A DNA stretch of 32,000 bases from Phycisphaera mikurensis NBRC 102666 (GTDB taxonomy: Bacteria > Planctomycetota > Phycisphaerae > Phycisphaerales > Phycisphaeraceae): positions 1,950,001-1,982,000 of the forward strand of contig NC_017080.1 in NCBI RefSeq assembly GCF_000284115.1. The letters run 5' to 3'. The stretch's first letter is position 1; each line of letters opens with the position of its first letter. The notes beneath the pieces were generated by a model. It was not told the origin of the DNA, did no database searches, and saw nothing but the letters and a program-made list of their open reading frames with translations. The translations under genes were made by a program, and so were the position numbers. Of this stretch, positions 13,029 to 19,984 are shown one piece after another.

Positions 13029-13188
13029 CGAGCCGCCCGATGCGTGGCGTGCGCGGGAACCGCGGCCTGCGGCCCGCGGGCCGGGCGGCCGCGCAGTTCC
13101 CGAGCGTCTCCGGCTAAGGTCGGCGGCCTCCGCTGCAGCGGGGCCCCTCGCACCCGGAACGCCCGCCCGCCCGCCGGGCAGATCAGCC

Positions 13189-14475
13189 ATGCCGTACGAC
13201 CTGAAGCCGCTGGACGTCGACGCCGAGACGACGCCTTACGTAGACACCGAGGGCTGGGGCGCGGGCGGCGACCGCTGGGCGCTGAACTTCGGGCCCCAGC
13301 ACCCCGCGACGCACACCACGCTTCGCATCGTGATGGAGCTCGACGGCGAGCGCGTCGTCCGCGCGGTGCCGCACATCGGCTACCTGCACTCGGGTTTCGA
13401 GAAGCTGGCCGAGGCGCTGGACTACAACCAGTACGTGACCATCGCGTCGCGGATGAACTACGTCTCGCCGATCGTCAACGACATCTCCTGGCACCACGCC
13501 GCCGAGAAGCTCTTCGACGTCGACATCACCCCGCGCTGCAAGGCCGTCCGGACGATCCTCGGCGAGCTGGGCCGGATCCAGGACCACCTGCTCTGCGTGG
13601 GCGCCTCCGCGCTGGACCTGGGGGCCTTCACCGGCTTCATCTACGGGTTCAACGAACGCGAGGGCATCATGGACGTGATGGACTACCTCGCGGGGCAGAG
13701 GTTCCATCCGGACTGGACCCGCCTGGGCGGGGCCATGGCCGACCTGCCCGACGAGGCCACGTTCATCAAGCTCGTCAAGCGGGTGATCCACGAGCTGCTG
13801 CCCCCGGCGATCGACGACCTCGAGGGTCTGCTTAACAAGAACCGCATCTTCCGCGACCGGACCGAGGGCATCGGCGCCGTGACCCACGACGAAGCCATCG
13901 CGTGGAGCTTGAGCGGCCCGGTCGCCCGCGCCAGCGGCGTGAAGCGCGACGTCCGCAAGGACGAGCCCTACCTCTGCTTCGCTGACAACTGGGACGGCCA
14001 GGGGGCCGAGCCCGTGACCTTCAAGGTCCCGCTGGCGACCACCGGCGACGTCTTCGGCCGCTACCTCGTGCGGCTCGAGGAGATCCGCCAGAGCATCCAC
14101 ATCATCGAGCAGCTGATCGACCGCATCCCCGGCGGACCGATGAACACGTGGGCGGACGGGAAGATGGCCAAGCCGAGCAAGAGCGAGGTCTACGGCAGCA
14201 TCGAGGGCCTCATCGAGCACTTCGAGCTGGTGATGACCAATCGCAAGTGGAAGGCCCCGATCAACGAGACCTACGCCTGCATCGAGAGCCCCAACGGCCA
14301 GCACGGCTTCTACCTCGTCGCCGACGGCGGGCCGACGCCCTGGCGGGCCAAGCACCGACCCTGCTCCTTCGTGCACTTCGCGGCCTTCGGGAAGATGCTC
14401 GAAGGGCACCTGCTGGCGGACGCGGTGGCGATCCTGGGCAGCCTCAACGTGATCGCGGCGGAGCTGGACCGGTGA
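13189..14475 (+). CDS. nuoD: NADH-quinone oxidoreductase subunit D
   Basis: LNFGPQHPATHTTLRIVMELDGE, HIGYLHSGFEKL and the C-terminus SLNVIAAELDR are present. A TAAGGT box at 13115-13120 is a possible -10 element, which would give a leader of roughly 60 nt. Confidence 0.95.
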   Translation: MPYDLKPLDVDAETTPYVDTEGWGAGGDRWALNFGPQHPATHTTLRIVMELDGERVVRAVPHIGYLHSGFEKLAEALDYNQYVTIASRMNYVSPIVNDISWHHAAEKLFDVDITPRCKAVRTILGELGRIQDHLLCVGASALDLGAFTGFIYGFNEREGIMDVMDYLAGQRFHPDWTRLGGAMADLPDEATFIKLVKRVIHELLPPAIDDLEGLLNKNRIFRDRTEGIGAVTHDEAIAWSLSGPVARASGVKRDVRKDEPYLCFADNWDGQGAEPVTFKVPLATTGDVFGRYLVRLEEIRQSIHIIEQLIDRIPGGPMNTWADGKMAKPSKSEVYGSIEGLIEHFELVMTNRKWKAPINETYACIESPNGQHGFYLVADGGPTPWRAKHRPCSFVHFAAFGKMLEGHLLADAVAILGSLNVIAAELDR

Positions 14476-14501
14476 GGGTTGCTGGTCGGTCGGGGTTAGG
14501 T

Positions 14502-14507
14502 TAGGAT
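14502..14507 (+). promoter_or_regulatory. TANNNT box next to the start codon (leaderless-type) for the 83-aa ORF inside the nuo cluster
   Basis: TAGGAT, 6 nt spacer, then ATG at 14514. It sits in a locally AT-richer GGTTAGGTTAGGAT stretch. Confidence 0.4.
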
Positions 14508-14513
14508 CGGAGC

Positions 14514-14765
14514 ATGTCGGGAGTGGACCTCAAGAGCGAGCTGAACAAGCAACCGTTCCAGCCGATCCAGGTCGTGCTCAGCAGCGGCGACCGGCACCCG
14601 ATCCGGCACCCCGAGTTCGCGATCTTCACCGACTACAACTCGGTGTACGTTTTCGATTCCGACAAGAGCCCTCAGGAGGAGCCTCATCCGGACACCCGCG
14701 GGCCAGTGATCCTTAGCATCTCGCAGATCGTCGCGGTGGAGCCTCTCAGCCAGACCGCGGCCTGA
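14514..14765 (+). CDS. Hypothetical 83-aa protein inserted between nuoD and nuoE
   Basis: This is a clean ORF whose composition is not R/P/G-biased (MSGVDLKSELNKQPFQPIQVVLSSGDRHPIRHPEFAIF...). It fills the nuoD-nuoE gap. I recognise no family. Confidence 0.55.
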   Translation: MSGVDLKSELNKQPFQPIQVVLSSGDRHPIRHPEFAIFTDYNSVYVFDSDKSPQEEPHPDTRGPVILSISQIVAVEPLSQTAA

Positions 14766-14797
14766 ATGCACGTTCCTCAGTCCCGCGACGCGAAACC

Positions 14798-15334
14798 ATG
14801 GCCTGGCTAACCAAACCCTCCGGCCGCCAAGCTCTCGAGCGGCGCAGCGAACCGTACCTGTCCGACGGGCTGAAGCAGAAGGTCGAGGAGCGGTACGCCC
14901 ACCGCTACCCGACGCGGCGGGCGATGGCGCTGCCGGTGCTTCACGCGATCCAGCACGAGCACAACTGGCTGCCCTACCAGGCGATCGAGGAGGCGGCGGA
15001 GTTCCTCGAGATCCAGCCCTCGGAGCTGCTCGACACGGCCACCTTCTACGAGGAGTTTTTCACGCAGCCGCGCGGCAAGCACACGGTGTGGGTGTGCCAG
15101 TCGGTGAGCTGCGAGGTGATGGGCGAGGCGGCGATCACCGAGTCGATCGCCGACGCCCTGAACATCGACCCCGGCGAGACCACCGACGACGACCAGGTGA
15201 CGCTGCTGAAGGTCGAGTGCATTGGCGCCTGCGGCGCCGCCCCGGTCGCGCTCGTCGACGAGGAGCTGCACGAGAACCTCACCCCCGCGTCCGCCGCGGA
15301 GCTTGCCCGCGGACTCGCGAAGAAGGGCGATTGA
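14798..15334 (+). CDS. nuoE: NADH-quinone oxidoreductase subunit E
   Basis: ALPVLHAIQHEHNWLP, VWVCQSVSCEVMG and VECIGACGAAPV supply the 2Fe-2S Cys ligands. Confidence 0.95.
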   Translation: MAWLTKPSGRQALERRSEPYLSDGLKQKVEERYAHRYPTRRAMALPVLHAIQHEHNWLPYQAIEEAAEFLEIQPSELLDTATFYEEFFTQPRGKHTVWVCQSVSCEVMGEAAITESIADALNIDPGETTDDDQVTLLKVECIGACGAAPVALVDEELHENLTPASAAELARGLAKKGD

Positions 15335-15336
15335 GC

Positions 15337-15546
15337 GTGGCACCGCCGCCGCGCACCGGTTGGTTCCAGAAGCTCTGCCGCCAGGCCGGCCTCGCCATCC
15401 ACCACGCGACCACCCCGACGGAGAAGGCGGACGAACAGCCGAAGGTCCTGTTGCGACGCACCACGATCATCGAGGAGGTGGAGGTTCCGGCGGCTACGGT
15501 GGATGAAGAGGTTGAATTGCCTGGCCGCCGCTCGGTGCGGATGTGA
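15337..15546 (+). CDS. Possible small protein (69 aa) directly after nuoE
   Basis: The GTG at 15337 lies 2 nt after the nuoE stop. Third codon positions are mostly G/C, as in the real genes here. The sequence is VAPPPRTGWFQKLCRQAGLAIHH...TTIIEEVEVP. I recognise no family. Confidence 0.35.
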   Translation: MAPPPRTGWFQKLCRQAGLAIHHATTPTEKADEQPKVLLRRTTIIEEVEVPAATVDEEVELPGRRSVRM

Positions 15547-15553
15547 GAGTCAG

Positions 15554-15580
15554 CGGGTTCTCCGTTGGGGGTTGAACCCG
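15554..15580 (+). terminator. Hairpin upstream of the ATPase module (possible end of the nuoE transcript)
   Basis: CGGGTTC (15554-15560) pairs with GAACCCG (15574-15580) across a 13-nt loop. There is no U-tract. Confidence 0.25.
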
Positions 15581-15583
15581 AGG

Positions 15584-15589
15584 TACGCT
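15584..15589 (+). promoter_or_regulatory. TANNNT -10-like box; candidate own promoter of the ATPase/DUF4276-like pair
   Basis: TACGCT lies 41 nt upstream of the ATG at 15631, immediately after the hairpin. Confidence 0.3.
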
Positions 15590-15630
15590 CAGCAGCGCTG
15601 CGGTTTCAATTCCTCCGGCCCTGCTGCGCC

Positions 15631-17133
15631 ATGCTCCTTCGCCTTGAGATCGACGGTTTCGAAAACCTACACGGCGTGGATCTGCGTTTTGGTCCATTCT
15701 CTTGCATCGCCGGTGGGAACGGCGTGGGCAAATCCAACGTCTTCGACGCGGTCCTCTTCCTGGGTCTGCTCGCCCGGAAGCCGCTGGCTGAAGCGGCTGC
15801 CTCCGTCCGCAATATCGTCGGTCGCCGCGGAGACGCTTCGGGCTTGTTCCGCAAGCGGAGCGACGGCGGTGTTGAGCCGATGCGGCTTGCTGCGACGGTG
15901 TTGGTGGCACCCAGGGGTCGCGACGAACTGATGCAGGAGGTGGAGGCAAGCAGCACCTTGCTGCGGTACCAGCTCGACCTCAGGCTGCGGGATGAGGCCA
16001 CCGAGTCCGGTCCGATCGAGATCCTCGGGGAGTCGCTGGAGCAGATCAACAAGGGCAAGGCCGCCGCAGCGATCGCGTTCCCACACTCCGCCAGCGTCTG
16101 GCGGGAACCGCTGGTGGTTTCCAAGCGGCGCTCACCCAACGGGTTCTTGCGAACCGAGGTTGACGCCGATGGCCGGCGGACCATCTGGATTGGACAAGAC
16201 GGCAACGCCGGCCGCCCCCAGCAACGGCTGGCTGAGCCGCTGCCGCGGACGGTGCTATCCACCGTCAACGCCGCCAATAGCCCCACGGGGGTGCTTGCGC
16301 AATCGGAGATGTCGAGTTGGAGCGTTCTACAATTTGAGCCCACCGCCCTGCGTAGCCCCGATGGCTTTCACGACCCATCGCGGATCGGGCCCGACGGGGC
16401 TCACGTGCCCGCGACGCTGCACCGCCTCCTGCACGCCGCCGGCGACCGGGAGCATCGCGAGGCCGTCCGGCAGCGAATCATCAATCGGCTACGCGGGCTG
16501 GTGCAGACCGTGGAGCGGCTGGACGTGGACCGTGATGAGAAGCGGGAGTTGCTCACGCTGATGGGCACCATGCGCGATGGGACTGCCTTCTCGGCACGCG
16601 CCCTCTCCGATGGCACCCTCCGCTTCTTGGCCCTGGCTGTGCTCGAAGAGGCTTCGCAGGACGGCGTCTTCTGCCTGGAGGAACCTGAGAACGGCGTCTT
16701 CCCGGACCAGATCCCGAGGATGATCGAGCTCTTGCAGGACATCGCCTTGGATCCAAACGAAGCCCCAGGCGACGATAACCCCCTGCGGCAGGTGATCATC
16801 AATATCCATTCGCCCTCGGTTGTCGCTCAGATCCCTGACAGTGCGTTGATCCTCGCGCAGGCGGTCGATCCGATGCTCACGCAGGCCGATCCTGCCGTCG
16901 GAGACGTCCGCTTCCTCGGCCTCAGCGACACGTGGCGTACCAAGCGTGGCGGACCCACCATGCGTAGAGCCGACCTTGCCGCGTACCTGGACCCCCTGGG
17001 GCACGCTCCCGACGCCCGAGACTTCGCACCCGCCGGCGCCAAGCCGATCCGCCGCGTGCGGGACAGGGAAGACCTCCAGCAGATGTACCTCTTTTCGGGC
17101 GGTGGCGCGAGCGAGAGCGGCGGCCCGGCGTGA
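15631..17133 (+). CDS. OLD/ABC-type (AAA_15/AAA_21-like) ATPase, 500 aa
   Basis: The N-terminus is MLLRLEIDGFENL. Walker A GGNGVGKS is at nt 15712-15735. LSDGTLRFLALAVLE starts at nt 16603. Walker B/D-loop VFCLEEPENGVFP starts at nt 16666. The H-loop is IINIHSPS, with His at 16807-16809. Confidence 0.85.
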   Translation: MLLRLEIDGFENLHGVDLRFGPFSCIAGGNGVGKSNVFDAVLFLGLLARKPLAEAAASVRNIVGRRGDASGLFRKRSDGGVEPMRLAATVLVAPRGRDELMQEVEASSTLLRYQLDLRLRDEATESGPIEILGESLEQINKGKAAAAIAFPHSASVWREPLVVSKRRSPNGFLRTEVDADGRRTIWIGQDGNAGRPQQRLAEPLPRTVLSTVNAANSPTGVLAQSEMSSWSVLQFEPTALRSPDGFHDPSRIGPDGAHVPATLHRLLHAAGDREHREAVRQRIINRLRGLVQTVERLDVDRDEKRELLTLMGTMRDGTAFSARALSDGTLRFLALAVLEEASQDGVFCLEEPENGVFPDQIPRMIELLQDIALDPNEAPGDDNPLRQVIINIHSPSVVAQIPDSALILAQAVDPMLTQADPAVGDVRFLGLSDTWRTKRGGPTMRRADLAAYLDPLGHAPDARDFAPAGAKPIRRVRDREDLQQMYLFSGGGASESGGPA

Positions 17134-17768
17134 GCCGCGTCTTCGCCTACACGCTTGTCGCTGATGGCAGCTCCGCTGCGATGCTCCGCCCGGTGCTGGA
17201 TTGGTTGATCTGCGATGCCTCCGGAGGTGCGGCCACCCCCAGCGGGAGCCTCTTCGATCCCAGGCGGCTCAGGCGAAGCCTCACGAAGCTGAGCGACCAT
17301 GTGGCCGCCGCGGCCGAAGACGCAGCCGGGAGCGTGCTCTTCGTGCACCGCGACGCAGAGCAGGCTGACCTCGCCACACGCGTCGAGGAGATTGAGCGAG
17401 CCGCCGCGGGGGTGAGCGGGGGTGTGGTCCCGGTCGTTCCAGTCCGCATGAGTGAGGCGTGGCTGCTCTTCGATGAGCAGGCCATCCGCACCGCCGCCGG
17501 CAACCCGGCGGGCCGGAAGCGGCTCGCGCTGCCGGCCGCGAAGAAGTGGGACGCATTGCCCGACCCCAAAGAAGCCCTTTACGGCTTGATCCGCGAGGCG
17601 TCGGAATTGAGCGGGCGCCGCCTCAAGAAGCTCAACTACGGCGAGGCTCGCGCAGAGGTAGCGCGGCTTATCGAAGATTTTTCGCCGCTGCGCAGCCTGC
17701 CCGCGTTTGAAGAGCTGCGTACGCGCGTCCAGCAGCGCCTGGCCGCGGGGGGCTATGCCGGAGCTTGA
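17130..17768 (+). CDS. DUF4276/Toprim-like protein, 212 aa, translationally coupled to the ATPase
   Basis: The start forms a GTGA overlap with the ATPase stop. Acidic motifs occur in Toprim-like order: YTLVADGSS (D12), LFVHRDAEQ (D75/E77) and RMSEAWLLFDEQ. The family assignment is from memory of the DUF4276 pattern. Confidence 0.6.
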   Translation: MSRVFAYTLVADGSSAAMLRPVLDWLICDASGGAATPSGSLFDPRRLRRSLTKLSDHVAAAAEDAAGSVLFVHRDAEQADLATRVEEIERAAAGVSGGVVPVVPVRMSEAWLLFDEQAIRTAAGNPAGRKRLALPAAKKWDALPDPKEALYGLIREASELSGRRLKKLNYGEARAEVARLIEDFSPLRSLPAFEELRTRVQQRLAAGGYAGA

Positions 17769-17910
17769 AACTGCCGGAGCTGCTTGTGGTCGCTCGCCGC
17801 TTCGCCGCGGAGGGAGGCTTCGCGCGTCCTGAGTTCACCGGCTACCCCCGCGGGCGGCTCAGGCCGATCACCCGGAACGTCCGGAGCCCGCGGCACGCGT
17901 CGTGTCGTCC

Positions 17911-17916
17911 TACGAT
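17911..17916 (+). promoter_or_regulatory. TANNNT -10-like box; candidate promoter for nuoF downstream of the insertion
   Basis: TACGAT lies 32 nt upstream of the ATG at 17949, within a 180-bp non-coding gap. Confidence 0.3.
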
Positions 17917-17948
17917 TCAGCCGCATTCCTCCTCCGCCAGAGACCTTG

Positions 17949-19304
17949 ATGACCCCCGTTCTTTTCCGACGCGTCCCGACCCCGCCCGAAGGCAGCTTCC
18001 ACGACCGGAAGTACGTCGGGTACGACGACTACGTGGCAAGCGAGGGCTACGAGGGGCTGCAGGCCGGCATCGACGCCGGCCACGAGGAGGTGGTGAACAT
18101 CGTCAAGGCGGCGGAGCTGCGCGGCCGCGGGGGGGCGGGGTTCCCGGCGGGCGTGAAGTGGGGCTTCCTGCCGCCGCTGGACGACGGCCCGCGCTACCTG
18201 TGCATCAACGCCGACGAGAGCGAGCCGGCGACGTTCAAGGATCAGGTGCTGATCCAGTTCGACCCGCACTCGGTCATCGAGGGCATCGCGCTGTGCATGC
18301 TGGCCTGCCAGCTGGACACCGCGTACTTCTACATCCGCGGCGAGTACCACCACCAGCGCGAGGTCTTCGAGCGGGCGATCGCCGAGGCCTACGCCAACGG
18401 CGTGCTCGGCGAGAACGCCCGGACGGGCAAGATCAACGGCCGGTGGCCGAACCTCTACCTGCACCGCGGGGCGGGGGCGTACATCTGCGGCGAGGAGACG
18501 GGGCTTATCGAGAGCTTGGAGGGCAAGCGGGGCTGGCCGCGGATCAAGCCGCCGTTCCCCGCCGTGCAGGGCGCCTTCGCCCGGCCGACGGTCATCAACA
18601 ACGTCGAGACGCTCGCCAATGTGCCCTTCATCCTGAAGCACGGCGCCGACGCCTGGAAGGCCAACGGCAAGGGCCGGCCGGAGGGGGCGCCGCCGCAGGT
18701 GCCGGCCAGCTACGGGACCAAGCTGATGGGCCTTTCGGGAGCGATTTCACGGCCGGGCGTGTACGAGCACGAGCTGGGGATCAAGCTCACGGACCTCATC
18801 GAGACGTCCGGGCAGGGCGCGCTTGCCGGCGAGGGCAACGCGATCAAGGGCTACTTCCACGGCGGCATCTCCATGGGCGTGATCAGCCAGGAGGAGGCGG
18901 AGGCCGGGGTCGAGATGGACTTCGACATCGGCAAGAAGTGGAACAACCTGGGCCTGGGAACCGCCTGCGTGACGGTGATCCCCGAGCGGACCTCCATGGT
19001 CGCCATGGCCCGCAACTGCGCCCGCTTCTACGCCCACGAGAGCTGCGGGCAGTGCACCCAGTGCCGCGAGGGGTCGCGCTGGCTCAACAAGATGCTCGAC
19101 CGCATGGTCGCCGGCGACGGGACGACCAAGGACCTGGACCTGCTGCTGGAGCTGGCCTCCTCGATGGGCTCGATGCCCGGCAACAACATCTGCGGCCTCA
19201 GCGACGGGGCGAACTGGGCGATCCGCACGATCGTCAACAAGTTCTGGGACGAGTTCGAGGCGATCGTGAGCAAGCCCTCCCGCGTCTCGCTCGCCGTCGT
19301 TTGA
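17949..19304 (+). CDS. nuoF: NADH-quinone oxidoreductase subunit F
   Basis: LRGRGGAGFPAGVKWGF, NADESEPATFKD, GAGAYICGEETGLIESLEG and ESCGQCTQCREG are present. The upstream part of ORF 17784-19304 is not NuoF-like. Confidence 0.95.
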   Translation: MTPVLFRRVPTPPEGSFHDRKYVGYDDYVASEGYEGLQAGIDAGHEEVVNIVKAAELRGRGGAGFPAGVKWGFLPPLDDGPRYLCINADESEPATFKDQVLIQFDPHSVIEGIALCMLACQLDTAYFYIRGEYHHQREVFERAIAEAYANGVLGENARTGKINGRWPNLYLHRGAGAYICGEETGLIESLEGKRGWPRIKPPFPAVQGAFARPTVINNVETLANVPFILKHGADAWKANGKGRPEGAPPQVPASYGTKLMGLSGAISRPGVYEHELGIKLTDLIETSGQGALAGEGNAIKGYFHGGISMGVISQEEAEAGVEMDFDIGKKWNNLGLGTACVTVIPERTSMVAMARNCARFYAHESCGQCTQCREGSRWLNKMLDRMVAGDGTTKDLDLLLELASSMGSMPGNNICGLSDGANWAIRTIVNKFWDEFEAIVSKPSRVSLAVV

Positions 19305-19387
19305 GTGCAGCGTGCTGGGCCTCCGCCGCTCGCGGGTCGGGGCGGGAACGAGGCTCGCGTGGCGTGTCGGGTACGCCGCGAAAGCCT

Positions 19388-19393
19388 TAGCAT
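19388..19393 (+). promoter_or_regulatory. TANNNT box next to the start codon (leaderless-type) for yqgE/algH
   Basis: TAGCAT, 6 nt spacer, then ATG at 19400. Confidence 0.4.
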
Positions 19394-19399
19394 CCGCGC

Positions 19400-19984
19400 A
19401 TGGCCGACCTGGTGGGCAAATTGTTGCTGGCGGCGCCCTCGCTGGAGGAGGCGGCGTTCCACAGGGCGGTCGTTCTCGTGATCGAGCACGGGCCGGCGGG
19501 GGCCATGGGGCTGGTCCTCAACAAGCCGACGCCGCTGAAGCTGGCCGACGTGCTCGCCAAAACCGAGACCGAGGCCGGCGACGACGCGGGCTTCGAGGCG
19601 GACGAAGCGGTGCTGCTCCACCAGGGCGGCCCCTGCCCCGGCCCGCTGTTCGTGCTGCACGCCGACGGGTGCCTGGGCGATCGCGAGCCGGTCCCGGGCC
19701 TGTTCCTCAGCAACGACGGGGACGTGATCCGGCTGCTGGTGCGGGAGCCGCCGGCGGCACCGCTGCCCTGGCGGGCGGTCGGTGGCTACGCCGGCTGGGG
19801 CCCGGGCCAGCTCGAGGGAGAGCTGGGGGAGGGCTCGTGGCGGATCGCCGAGGCCCCGGTGGACGTCCTGCTGAACCTCGACGGCGACGCCGGCTGGTTG
19901 GACCTCACCCGCTCCGCGGCACGCGAGGCCGTCTACGAGGATCTACCCGATGCCGCCGTGCCGCGGGACCCTCGCAACAACTAG
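19400..19984 (+). CDS. YqgE/AlgH family protein (UPF0301)
   Basis: LLLAAPSLEEAAFHRAVVLVIEHGPAGAMGLVLNKP matches the YqgE N-terminal signature. GYAGWGPGQLEGEL is also present. Confidence 0.85.
   Translation: MADLVGKLLLAAPSLEEAAFHRAVVLVIEHGPAGAMGLVLNKPTPLKLADVLAKTETEAGDDAGFEADEAVLLHQGGPCPGPLFVLHADGCLGDREPVPGLFLSNDGDVIRLLVREPPAAPLPWRAVGGYAGWGPGQLEGELGEGSWRIAEAPVDVLLNLDGDAGWLDLTRSAAREAVYEDLPDAAVPRDPRNN

Follow-up and report, generated by a model that had tools for sequence, protein, structure and literature searches.

A probable stand-alone HEC-01-type module inserted between orf69 and nuoF in Phycisphaera mikurensis

Two overlapping genes in the respiratory complex I gene cluster of Phycisphaera mikurensis NBRC 102666 probably constitute a horizontally acquired, stand-alone HEC-01-type module of two translationally coupled genes. 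They were found in a window of 32,000 nucleotides (contig NC_017080.1, positions 1,950,001 to 1,982,000). The first encodes an ABC ATPase of 500 residues and the second a DUF4276-related protein of 212 residues. An earlier note, made from the sequence alone, had read them as an accessory module, analogous to PARIS or a split OLD, in which an OLD/ABC-type ATPase is accompanied by a nuclease-like DUF4276 protein encoded separately, and this core reading is supported by PADLOC and Pfam, by the ATPase model, by comparison of the junction among relatives and by the GC content at third codon positions (GC3). On the basis of its profile matches, the pair is classed as a further member of HEC-01, an already catalogued candidate defence family.

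Organization of the gene pair

Both open reading frames and the GTGA overlap between them are present as described in the earlier note, within the following layout:

15337..15546, + strand: orf69, small conserved ORF, 69 aa (tblastn), left border of the insertion
15547..15630, + strand: upstream spacer, 84 nt, with a hairpin (15554-15580) and TACGCT (15584-15589)
15631..17133, + strand: HEC-01A-type ABC (SMC-head/OLD/PtuA-like) ATPase gene, ATG start, 500 aa
17130..17133, + strand: GTGA stop/start overlap of 4 nt coupling both genes (GTG 17130-17132, TGA 17131-17133)
17130..17768, + strand: HEC-01B-type DUF4276-related gene, putative metal-dependent nuclease effector, GTG start, 212 aa
17769..17948, + strand: downstream spacer before nuoF, 180 nt, with TACGAT (17911-17916)
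17949..19304, + strand: nuoF (Pfam Complex1_51K, 8.3e-44; NADH_4Fe-4S), right border of the insertion

The ATPase and DUF4276-like genes are strictly linked, the former being located directly upstream of the latter at 83/83 homologous loci with room for the ATPase. The same overlap, or a near-abutment of both genes, is found at several of the homologous loci.

The ATPase

The 500-aa protein matches the HEC-01A model of PADLOC (PDLC04184) with an E-value of 2.5e-92 and 308 bits, residues 1-404 aligning with positions 1-397 of the 464 in the model. Its Pfam matches are AAA_21 (E 1.8e-16), AAA_15 and SMC_N, and its N-terminal motif is common to RecF, SMC, Rad50 and UvrA. The NCBIfam model MAD3 aligns with it over the whole length (E 4e-28; 98.7 bits versus an equivalog cut-off of 420), and the PADLOC mad3 model is matched as well. 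The AriA models of PADLOC match residues 308-399 only, a stretch of ~90 aa. The motif set of the ABC/RecF/OLD type that had been read from the sequence, with ~290 aa between Walker A and the signature, was found in full; residue conservation was scored over 41 homologues:

15712..15735, + strand: Walker A / P-loop GGNGVGKS (K34), aa 28-35; G33, K34 and S35 invariant
16603..16647, + strand: ABC signature region LSDGTLRFLALAVLE, aa 325-339; S326, D327, G328 and T329 invariant
16666..16704, + strand: Walker B / D-loop region VFCLEEPENGVFP, aa 346-358; C348 and E350 through G355 invariant
16795..16818, + strand: H-loop region IINIHSPS (H393), aa 389-396; N391 and H393 invariant

Residue Q102 is likewise invariant in the 41 homologues. 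Walker A, Q-loop, signature, Walker B, H-loop and the ABC head fold are all present. The AF2 model of the protein (pLDDT 89.3) is matched by Foldseek, with E-values from 1e-12 to 1e-9, to Septu PtuA, retron PtuA, SMC heads and the T. scotoductus OLD nuclease, the best PDB match being Septu PtuA 8EEA (E 1.8e-12). By sequence, the top PDB match is T. scotoductus OLD (6P74). The C-terminal 100 aa yielded no Toprim match in Pfam or PADLOC.

The DUF4276-related protein

The 212-aa protein, which bears the NCBI name 'DUF4276 family protein', matches the HEC-01B model of PADLOC (PDLC04210) with an E-value of 1.5e-22, residues 8-206 aligning with positions 7-211 of the 217 in the model. The match to DUF4276 anticipated in the earlier note is significant, though sub-threshold: Pfam DUF4276 (PF14103) is matched by residues 64-176 only, with an E-value of 7.6e-5 and 23.5 bits, and the gathering score of 30.2 bits is not reached. 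Of 40 family members, 32 match the same model with an E-value of 0.01 or lower, the best being 4.9e-7. To judge from these scores, the small protein is a divergent DUF4276 relative rather than a threshold-passing member, and its family comprises ~2,500 clusters at 50% identity. The three acidic motifs pointed out previously are all in the sequence, with residue conservation scored over 40 homologues:

17160..17174, + strand: ADGSS motif (D12), aa 11-15, in the loop after strand 1; G13 invariant, D12 and D16 >=90% conserved
17346..17360, + strand: HRDAE motif (D75, E77), aa 73-77, directly after strand 3; H73, R74 and D75 invariant, E77 >=90% conserved
17451..17477, + strand: SEAWLLFDE motif (E109, D115, E116), aa 108-116, after strand 4; E109, W111 and L113 invariant, D115 and E116 >=90% conserved

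Where the canonical site has Glu and DxD, this subfamily has Asp and DxE, and the exchange of the first Glu of the DUF4276 pattern for Asp had been correctly recognized. The AF2 model (pLDDT 93.4) follows a beta-alpha-beta-alpha-beta-alpha-beta order in which acidic residues come straight after strands 1, 3 and 4, the layout published for Toprim and DUF4276. Zero Foldseek matches to this model were obtained at E <= 1e-3 in the PDB and BFVD, and a sequence-profile search of the PDB gave nothing below an E-value of 0.06. With hhalign, the family produced nothing against one OLD Toprim sequence and a probability of 0.8% against a 24-sequence OLD-Toprim alignment. The Toprim fold proposed for the small protein rests on published analyses, which place DUF4276 in the Toprim superfamily; our own Foldseek and hhalign searches did not recover Toprim similarity. 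The catalytic motifs of both proteins are conserved and intact, and so are both reading frames.

Insertion site and foreign origin

An insertion between nuoE and nuoF had been claimed, and the pair is indeed inserted there, but the junction is not the plain one supposed. Of 68 relatives, 35 have a tblastn match to orf69 between nuoE and nuoF, and its motif is also visible by eye at the loci of several relatives without a tblastn match. Since orf69 intervenes between nuoE and nuoF in the lineage, the actual neighbours of the pair are orf69 and nuoF. Neither Pfam nor NCBIfam gave a match to orf69. What lies at the orf69–nuoF junction varies within the Phycisphaeraceae: 12 of the 68 relatives carry different cargo there, and at least two of these have the PADLOC candidate PDC-M06.

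The pair at this junction is accessory and of foreign origin, because the 68 nuoE–nuoF loci compared in related Phycisphaeraceae all lack it, its GC3 deviates (0.80 in both genes, versus 0.93-0.97 for nuoD/E/F and most neighbours) and its closest homologues, at 51-61% identity, belong to other lineages. The comparison across relatives, which the earlier note had suggested, thus identifies an accessory rather than a core element. A lowered G+C content had been inferred from six 60-nt lines, and recounting gave exactly the same figures (63.3, 60.0, 60.0, 56.7, 76.7 and 70.0%). These lines were, however, cherry-picked: at 66.3% and 68.7%, the whole-gene GC of the pair is no different from that of nuoD, nuoE and nuoF (67.8-68.7%), and it is the third position that carries the signal.

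The hairpin, the TACGCT box and the TACGAT box reported in the spacers were located. The hairpin is modest (-13.4 kcal/mol, z = -2.3), as is the folding of the whole 84-nt spacer with respect to shuffles (z -2.1), and at 17769-17900 the downstream spacer shows no folding beyond that of shuffles (z +0.2). The upstream spacer is not conserved in relatives, and the intergenic regions around the pair show no similarity to them. Consensus scans of 14400-19500 for sigma-70-like promoters were negative, and they detected a terminator-like site in neither of the intergenic gaps beside the pair. These scans speak neither for nor against the separate transcription unit suggested in the earlier note. Meaningful direct or inverted repeats are lacking around the pair, the window contains neither a tRNA nor an Rfam element, and no flank element is conserved among homologous loci (62 upstream and 74 downstream flanks).

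Distribution of the subfamily

The subfamily is found mostly outside defence islands. Pairs stand alone in 9/9 inspected contexts and at most of 53 metagenomic loci, where the upstream neighbours are mainly housekeeping genes and few are defence genes, which argues against a defence reading. The upstream neighbour is on the same strand at 41/54 loci; about 70-75% of adjacent bacterial genes are co-directional in general, and a bias to co-directional embedding is therefore not claimed as significant. Relatives of the pair number zero among 2.9 million viral contigs of IMG/VR and zero among 50,697 phage records of INPHARED, and among 72,556 plasmids of PLSDB there is a single one, on a cyanobacterial 1.2-Mb replicon.

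It is conceivable, albeit doubtful, that the orf69–nuoF junction is a lineage-wide landing site for seemingly promoterless cassettes, and that the HEC-01 subfamily spreads embedded in places with a core housekeeping gene (nuoE, icd, dnaE, hisB, alaS or others) directly upstream, not via phages, plasmids or defence islands. If so, the subfamily could borrow the transcription of host operons and use conserved flanking genes as recombination anchors. This would represent an under-recognized route for carrying and expressing defence genes, with expression tied to respiratory or central-metabolic operons.

Comparison with known systems

HEC-01 (Hma-embedded candidate 1; PADLOC-DB v2) was found embedded in Hma systems and pairs an ABC ATPase with a TOPRIM-like protein that has an OLD-like metal site; the representative tested did not protect E. 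coli MG1655 from any of the phages tried (Payne et al. 2024, bioRxiv 10.1101/2024.01.29.577857). In a 2026 study, a different representative, from a cold seep, gave E. coli B protection from one or more of the phages T4, T5 and T7. The P. mikurensis genes have the same order, ABC ATPase and then small, putatively TOPRIM-like (DUF4276) protein, are adjacent on the same strand, and match both models nearly full length. They differ in being located not inside an Hma or other defence system but in a respiratory gene cluster, and in the Asp and DxE of the PDLC04210 subfamily in place of the canonical Glu and DxD; moreover, the representatives tested in print, with mixed results, are others than this pair.

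MADS, the methylation-associated defence system, is methylation-based and has eight genes, of which MAD6-8 are mandatory; Mad4 is a DUF4276 protein, knock-outs of mad3 and mad4 lose defence, and the methylase mad5 is deletable only if mad2 or mad3 is deleted as well (Maestri et al. 2024; preprint 10.1101/2023.03.30.534895). The opinion of the earlier note that no DUF4276-based system had been characterised does not hold, as HEC-01 has been catalogued and tested and Mad3 and Mad4 are needed in MADS. Our pair resembles Mad3–Mad4 in combining an ATPase with a DUF4276 protein and in the end-to-end MAD3 alignment. It differs in that the 21 called genes around it include no MADS-type partner by Pfam content, the MAD3 score is far under the equivalog cut-off and mad4 is not among the PADLOC matches of the small protein at E-values up to 1. 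The combination of MAD6, MAD7 and MAD8 with a MAD3 match of equivalog score does not occur here.

PARIS, composed of the ABC ATPase AriA and the DUF4435 Toprim nuclease AriB, is similar in uniting a separate AAA_15/21 ABC ATPase with a small effector, which in our pair is a putative member of the Toprim superfamily, and in the Nature paper on PARIS the ATPases associated with DUF4276 fall into the same AAA15/21 tree. Identity with PARIS was rejected, since the AriA match spans only ~90 aa and no AriB is found among the PADLOC matches of the small protein at E-values up to 1. PARIS is often phage- and satellite-borne, whereas the subfamily of the P. mikurensis pair was not found in viral collections.

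The ABC head and the long insert between Walker A and signature are shared with OLD and with the GajA protein of Gabija (classes 1 and 2), and T. scotoductus OLD (6P74) is a Foldseek match to the ATPase model with an E-value of 8e-10. In OLD and GajA a single polypeptide combines ATPase and Toprim domain, with a UvrD protein as partner in class 2; in contrast, the putative effector of our pair is a separate DUF4276 protein, in which no profile similarity to OLD Toprim was detected. An OLD of class 1 was discarded on account of the two separate ORFs and the missing Toprim match in the ATPase C-terminus, and Gabija on account of the neighbours (nuoE, orf69 and nuoF), none of which is a helicase gene. 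The solved structures nearest to the ATPase model are those of PtuA from Septu and from retron Ec78–Eco7 (8EEA, then the 9N6C and 9NNB series), but the TM-score to PtuA is only ~0.4, so that just the ABC head is shared. The partner of PtuA is the HNH nuclease PtuB, unlike the DUF4276 protein found here.

Alternative explanations and proposed mechanism

The pair could be a selfish, toxin–antitoxin-like addiction cassette, in which the ATPase restrains a toxic nuclease and which persists since its loss is harmful and not for phage defence. We consider this unlikely. Its patchy distribution and foreign composition would fit such a cassette, as would its position alone among housekeeping genes instead of in defence islands and the one HEC-01 test without defence, and the constraint on deleting the MADS methylase suggests a latent toxicity dependent on the ATPase. 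However, another HEC-01 representative lowered phage plating, mad3 and mad4 are required for MADS defence, and plasmids, the usual home of addiction modules, almost lack the subfamily (1/72,556 records); addiction and defence roles can, in addition, coexist. That the pair is a remnant orphaned from a larger methylation-based system (a Mad3–Mad4 module of MADS or Hma type), inert or decaying on its own, is decidedly improbable. The first finding of HEC-01 inside Hma systems, the alignment of the ATPase with MAD3 and PADLOC mad3, and the absence of a methylase or helicase partner from the window all agree with it, but the catalytic residues and both frames are intact, lone pairs are the norm for the subfamily, and the MAD3 score and the PADLOC matches of the small protein, without mad4, count against it.

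A housekeeping role in DNA repair or genome maintenance, similar to that of RecF, SbcCD or OLD, might be suggested by the N-terminal motif of the ATPase and by upstream neighbours that are DNA-metabolism genes, e.g., dnaE and DprA, although the repeated neighbour families come partly from near-identical contigs. This role is very improbable given the absence of the pair from the locus in all 68 close relatives, its patchy distribution and foreign GC3, and the fact that its best profile matches are defence-system models. Finally, the location inside the nuoD-E-F cluster, on the same strand as nuoE and nuoF, close to both and with no terminator-like site in the flanking gaps, raises the idea that the two genes supply complex I with accessory subunits or assembly factors specific to the lineage. 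This idea is effectively refuted by the comparative data: the related nuoE–nuoF loci lack the pair (0/68), its homologues adjoin unrelated genes elsewhere, its GC3 is unlike that of the nuo genes, and the two families are of nucleic-acid ATPase and nuclease types.

For the HEC-01-type module that we favour, we infer complex formation, nuclease activity, a trigger, a target and activity in P. mikurensis as follows. The ATPase would dimerise via its ATP-sandwich motifs, bind the small protein and hold it inactive. A cue of infection (a phage protein, or else nucleic acid that is foreign or aberrant) would alter the ATPase cycle, and the putative metal-dependent nuclease site (D12, D75, E77 and E109) would then be released or activated, cutting DNA or RNA. 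Such cleavage would block phage or other invading DNA, possibly at a cost to the cell. Points against this favoured reading are the HEC-01 representative that failed to protect E. coli MG1655, the location of the subfamily mostly outside defence islands, its scarcity in viral, phage and plasmid collections, the Toprim similarity that our searches did not recover, and the Asp and DxE in place of Glu and DxD.

Significance

The pair is a real but fairly ordinary find that opens no long-standing question. Its value is mostly confirmatory, an accessory defence-type cassette having been correctly picked out by reading the sequence alone. It adds an example from the Planctomycetota to a widespread ATPase–nuclease family whose defence role has mixed evidence, and for specialists it draws attention to a subfamily in which the proposed Toprim site is conserved in an Asp / DxE form. 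The almost invariable occurrence of this cassette on its own beside housekeeping genes, and its near-absence from phage and plasmid collections, may explain why it is overlooked by island-based defence screens, and raises the question of how it moves.

Gene pair and composition

The earlier note had proposed a candidate ATPase plus DUF4276 defence module, and this reading is supported in substance. Both ORFs and the GTGA stop/start overlap that joins them are as it described, and all the motifs that it quoted were found where it had placed them:

15631–17133, + strand: ATPase CDS, ATG start, 500 aa
17130–17768, + strand: small-protein CDS, GTG start, 212 aa

The 212-aa protein, named “DUF4276 family protein” by NCBI, has identical copies on contig JACHEL010000004.1 of GCA_014207395.1 and on a 3.8-Mb contig. 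The six hand counts of GC in the note are exact, but the GC content of the pair over whole genes is no different from that of nuoD, nuoE, and nuoF. What does distinguish the pair is GC3, at 0.80 in both of its genes vs 0.93–0.97 in the nuo genes and most neighbours. The hairpin (15554–15580; −13.4 kcal/mol, z −2.3) and the two TACGNT hexamers noted earlier are also present. A consensus scan of 14400–19500 gave no promoter-like site and two terminator-like sites, neither of them in the gaps flanking the pair.

Family assignment and active sites

The type of pair is already catalogued, as HEC-01, a PADLOC candidate defence system: the two HEC-01 HMMs are matched by genes that are adjacent and on the same strand, as its definition specifies. 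The defining features of PARIS, fused OLD, Gabija, and MADS (the eight-gene methylation-associated defence system) were each looked for and not found.

The ATPase matches the HEC-01A model PDLC04184 (E 2.5e-92, residues 1–404) and Pfam AAA_21 (1.8e-16), as well as AAA_15 and SMC_N. Its active site is intact, with Walker A G33-K34-S35, Q102, signature S326-T329, Walker B E350-E351, and H393 invariant in 41 homologues. The nearest solved structures to its confident AF2 model (pLDDT 89.3) are Septu PtuA (8EEA, E 1.8e-12), the retron Ec78/Eco7 PtuA, SMC heads, and the T. scotoductus OLD nuclease; TM-scores of about 0.4 indicate that only the ABC head is common to them. A search for a solved structure of any close ATPase homologue found none.

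The small protein matches the HEC-01B model PDLC04210 over nearly its full length (E 1.5e-22). Its match to Pfam DUF4276 covers residues 64–176 only (E 7.6e-5) and, at 23.5 bits, lies under the 30.2-bit gathering score, making it a divergent relative; 32 of 40 members of its family match DUF4276. Here too the active site is intact: H73, R74, D75, E109, W111, and L113 are invariant in 40 homologues, and D12, D16, E77, D115, and E116 are at least 90% conserved. The very confident AF2 model (pLDDT 93.4) runs strand 3–10, helix 14–30, strand 35–41, helix 54–64, strand 69–73, helix 81–91, and strand 99–102, followed by a helical C-terminal half, with conserved acidic residues directly after strands 1, 3, and 4. 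This acidic layout is the published Toprim/DUF4276 one, except for Asp in place of Glu and DxE in place of DxD. Foldseek searches of the model against PDB and BFVD returned nothing at E ≤ 1e-3, and hhalign against an OLD-Toprim sequence and an OLD-Toprim alignment was negative.

Insertion between orf69 and nuoF

The junction was surveyed in one genome per species with nuoF, which gave 76 loci, nearly all from Phycisphaerae, 68 of them usable (nuoE and nuoF co-directional on a single contig). The nuoE–nuoF spacing has a median of 293 nt in these 68 relatives vs 2,614 nt in the window, and no relative of either pair gene lies between nuoE and nuoF in any of them. The pair is of foreign origin and, being missing from these relatives and anomalous in GC3, it is accessory rather than core, as the earlier note had supposed. 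The placement of the pair directly between nuoE and nuoF requires correction, since orf69 occupies that space and the actual borders are orf69 and nuoF:

14514–14765, + strand: orf83, 83 aa, between nuoD and nuoE
15337–15546, + strand: orf69, 69 aa, directly after nuoE, motif GWFQKLCRQAGLAIHH … LLRRTTIIEEVEV

No Pfam or NCBIfam family was found for orf69, which is retained in this nuoE–nuoF space by at least 35 of the 68 loci (Phycisphaeraceae) with the motif WFQK.CRN.GL..H … TLRRTTIEEIE, and may be a lineage-specific small protein tied to complex I. The other small ORF, orf83, has no family and is weakly conserved (36% identity in two relatives' loci, L009 and L010). The three nuo genes form a separate cluster (window 13183–19984), with no nuoA–C or nuoG–N nearby, a divergent epimerase gene upstream and an AlgH-like (DUF179) gene downstream; their order holds throughout Phycisphaeraceae, and about 20 loci also have the AlgH-like gene after nuoF. 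As to signatures of mobility, there are no repeats flanking the pair, no tRNA or Rfam element in the window, no integrase among the called genes, and no flank element common to the homologous loci.

More than 500 nt separate the genes at this junction in 12 of the 68 relatives' loci, with different cargo:

L029:6203–6723, L015:6473–6968, L033:1925–2436: two-gene cargo between orf69 and nuoF
L007:6495–6989, L018:6541–6984: single ORFs of 147–164 aa, no known family
L012:3489–4412, L014:2061–2966, L016:5154–6086, L080:5785–6813: a protein of ~300–340 aa between orf69 and nuoF
L059:1929–5834, L065:5009–7001, L074:4576–7001: unrelated nuoE–nuoF cargo of 2–4 kb in more distant relatives

The first gene of the two-gene cargo encodes 72–78 aa; its product in L029 and L015 matches PDC-M06A, a PADLOC candidate (E ~3e-24), and the L033 protein resembles these by eye; the second ORF in L029 and L033, of ~100 aa, has no family. 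The single-ORF inserts look recent and foreign, as their DNA has 49% GC within loci of 64–66%. The ~300–340-aa protein has no informative Pfam match and shows, by eye, a hydrophobic N-terminus, a coiled-coil-looking region, and a conserved C-terminal domain. The cargo ORFs of the distant relatives look, by eye, methyladenine-glycosylase-like, radical-SAM-like, epimerase-like, and beta-lactamase-like.

Homologous pairs and their contexts

A profile search placed 2,472 clusters at 50% identity in the small-protein family (E ≤ 1e-3), 913 of them below 1e-30, and word-indexed relatives of the ATPase number over 7,000. The two genes are linked: in 88 homologous loci, the ATPase lies directly upstream of the small gene in all 83 with upstream room, and several loci have the same stop/start overlap. 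The closest homologues share 51% (small protein) and 61% (ATPase) identity. Named relatives belong to Geobacteraceae, Kiritimatiellaeota, Syntrophobacteraceae, Myxococcota, Cyanobacteria, Anaerolineales, and other Phycisphaerae. Defence-type neighbours were seen in three of nine inspected contexts, and most of the remaining six have the pair right behind a co-directional housekeeping gene.

Genomic contexts of homologous pairs
L002: HEPN/NTase and ResIII neighbours
L003: SNF2 and class-2 OLD with UvrD neighbours
L004: SNF2 and a UPF0175/DUF3368 pair as neighbours
L083:8001–10132: after monomeric IDH gene, same strand, 50–100 nt downstream
L084:8001–10131: after isocitrate/isopropylmalate dehydrogenase (Iso_dh), same strand, 50–100 nt downstream
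L085:9001–11129: after dnaE, same strand, 50–100 nt downstream
L087:7526–9669: after hisB (his operon), same strand, 50–100 nt downstream
L086 (Gloeobacter): between divergently oriented metabolic genes

The metagenomic L003:1–8663 is a small defence island that immediately adjoins its HEC-01-type pair; a class-2 OLD nuclease (AAA_15/21 plus OLD-like Toprim) stands beside a UvrD helicase, a Gabija-like arrangement, together with a 1,187-aa SNF2/NOV_C helicase.

Upstream neighbours in 53 loci are mainly housekeeping genes (RNase II/R, DNA pol III alpha, CobN, AlaRS, FTHFS, PPDK, IGPD, and others), with few defence genes (HsdR in two, SoFic, PDC-S01, and one mad3). No relatives were found in IMG/VR or in 50,697 phage records, and 72,556 plasmids yielded one. 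Given these neighbours and this near-absence from viral and plasmid collections, the lone cassette of P. mikurensis beside core genes is typical of its subfamily. The upstream neighbour is on the same strand in 41 of 54 loci, with a median gap of 84 nt; this same-strand share does not clearly exceed what is usual in bacteria. The orf69–nuoF junction, with its other cargo in 12 of 68 relatives, could be a hot spot for cargo, and the HEC-01 subfamily would then spread by settling downstream of housekeeping genes; we consider this reading unlikely.

Known systems, alternatives, and proposed mechanism

Payne et al. (2024 preprint, 10.1101/2024.01.29.577857) described HEC-01 as an ABC ATPase with a TOPRIM-like protein, embedded in Hma systems; according to them, its metal site is conserved and OLD-like, and it gave no protection to E. 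coli. In a 2026 Nature Communications paper, a cold-seep representative is reported to shield E. coli B from one or more of the phages T4, T5, and T7. HEC-01 is still an unvalidated candidate in other surveys. DUF4276 and RloB were placed in the Toprim superfamily in a 2025 NAR paper, which also counts the MADS component Mad4 among the DUF4276 proteins, and the AAA15/21 tree of the PARIS Nature paper takes in DUF4276-associated ATPases. In MADS (preprint, 10.1101/2023.03.30.534895), deletion of mad3 or mad4 reduced defence, and the methylase gene mad5 could be deleted only if mad2 or mad3 went too, implying self-toxicity that depends on the ATPase. With these papers, the belief in the earlier note that no DUF4276-based system had been characterised is outdated: HEC-01 and MADS have been studied, though no mechanism has been worked out.

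The pair could be an orphaned Mad3–Mad4 fragment. The ATPase gives an end-to-end alignment to NCBIfam MAD3 (E 4e-28), at 98.7 bits vs a 420-bit equivalog cut-off, and we consider this origin quite unlikely. A selfish addiction cassette is an unlikely explanation too, if a less remote one, and a role in DNA repair a very unlikely one. An accessory role in complex I is effectively refuted by the comparison of nuoE–nuoF junctions.

We favour, as probable, a defence mechanism in which an ATPase dimer would restrain the DUF4276 protein, a putative nuclease, until a phage-derived cue altered the ATP cycle, and the freed protein would then carry out metal-dependent cleavage of nucleic acid. Complex formation, nuclease activity, trigger, and target are proposed here by analogy with PARIS, OLD/Gabija, Septu, and MADS. 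Since the pair stands alone with no methylase, it would more likely discriminate through a trigger, as in PARIS and Gabija, than through methylation, as in MADS.
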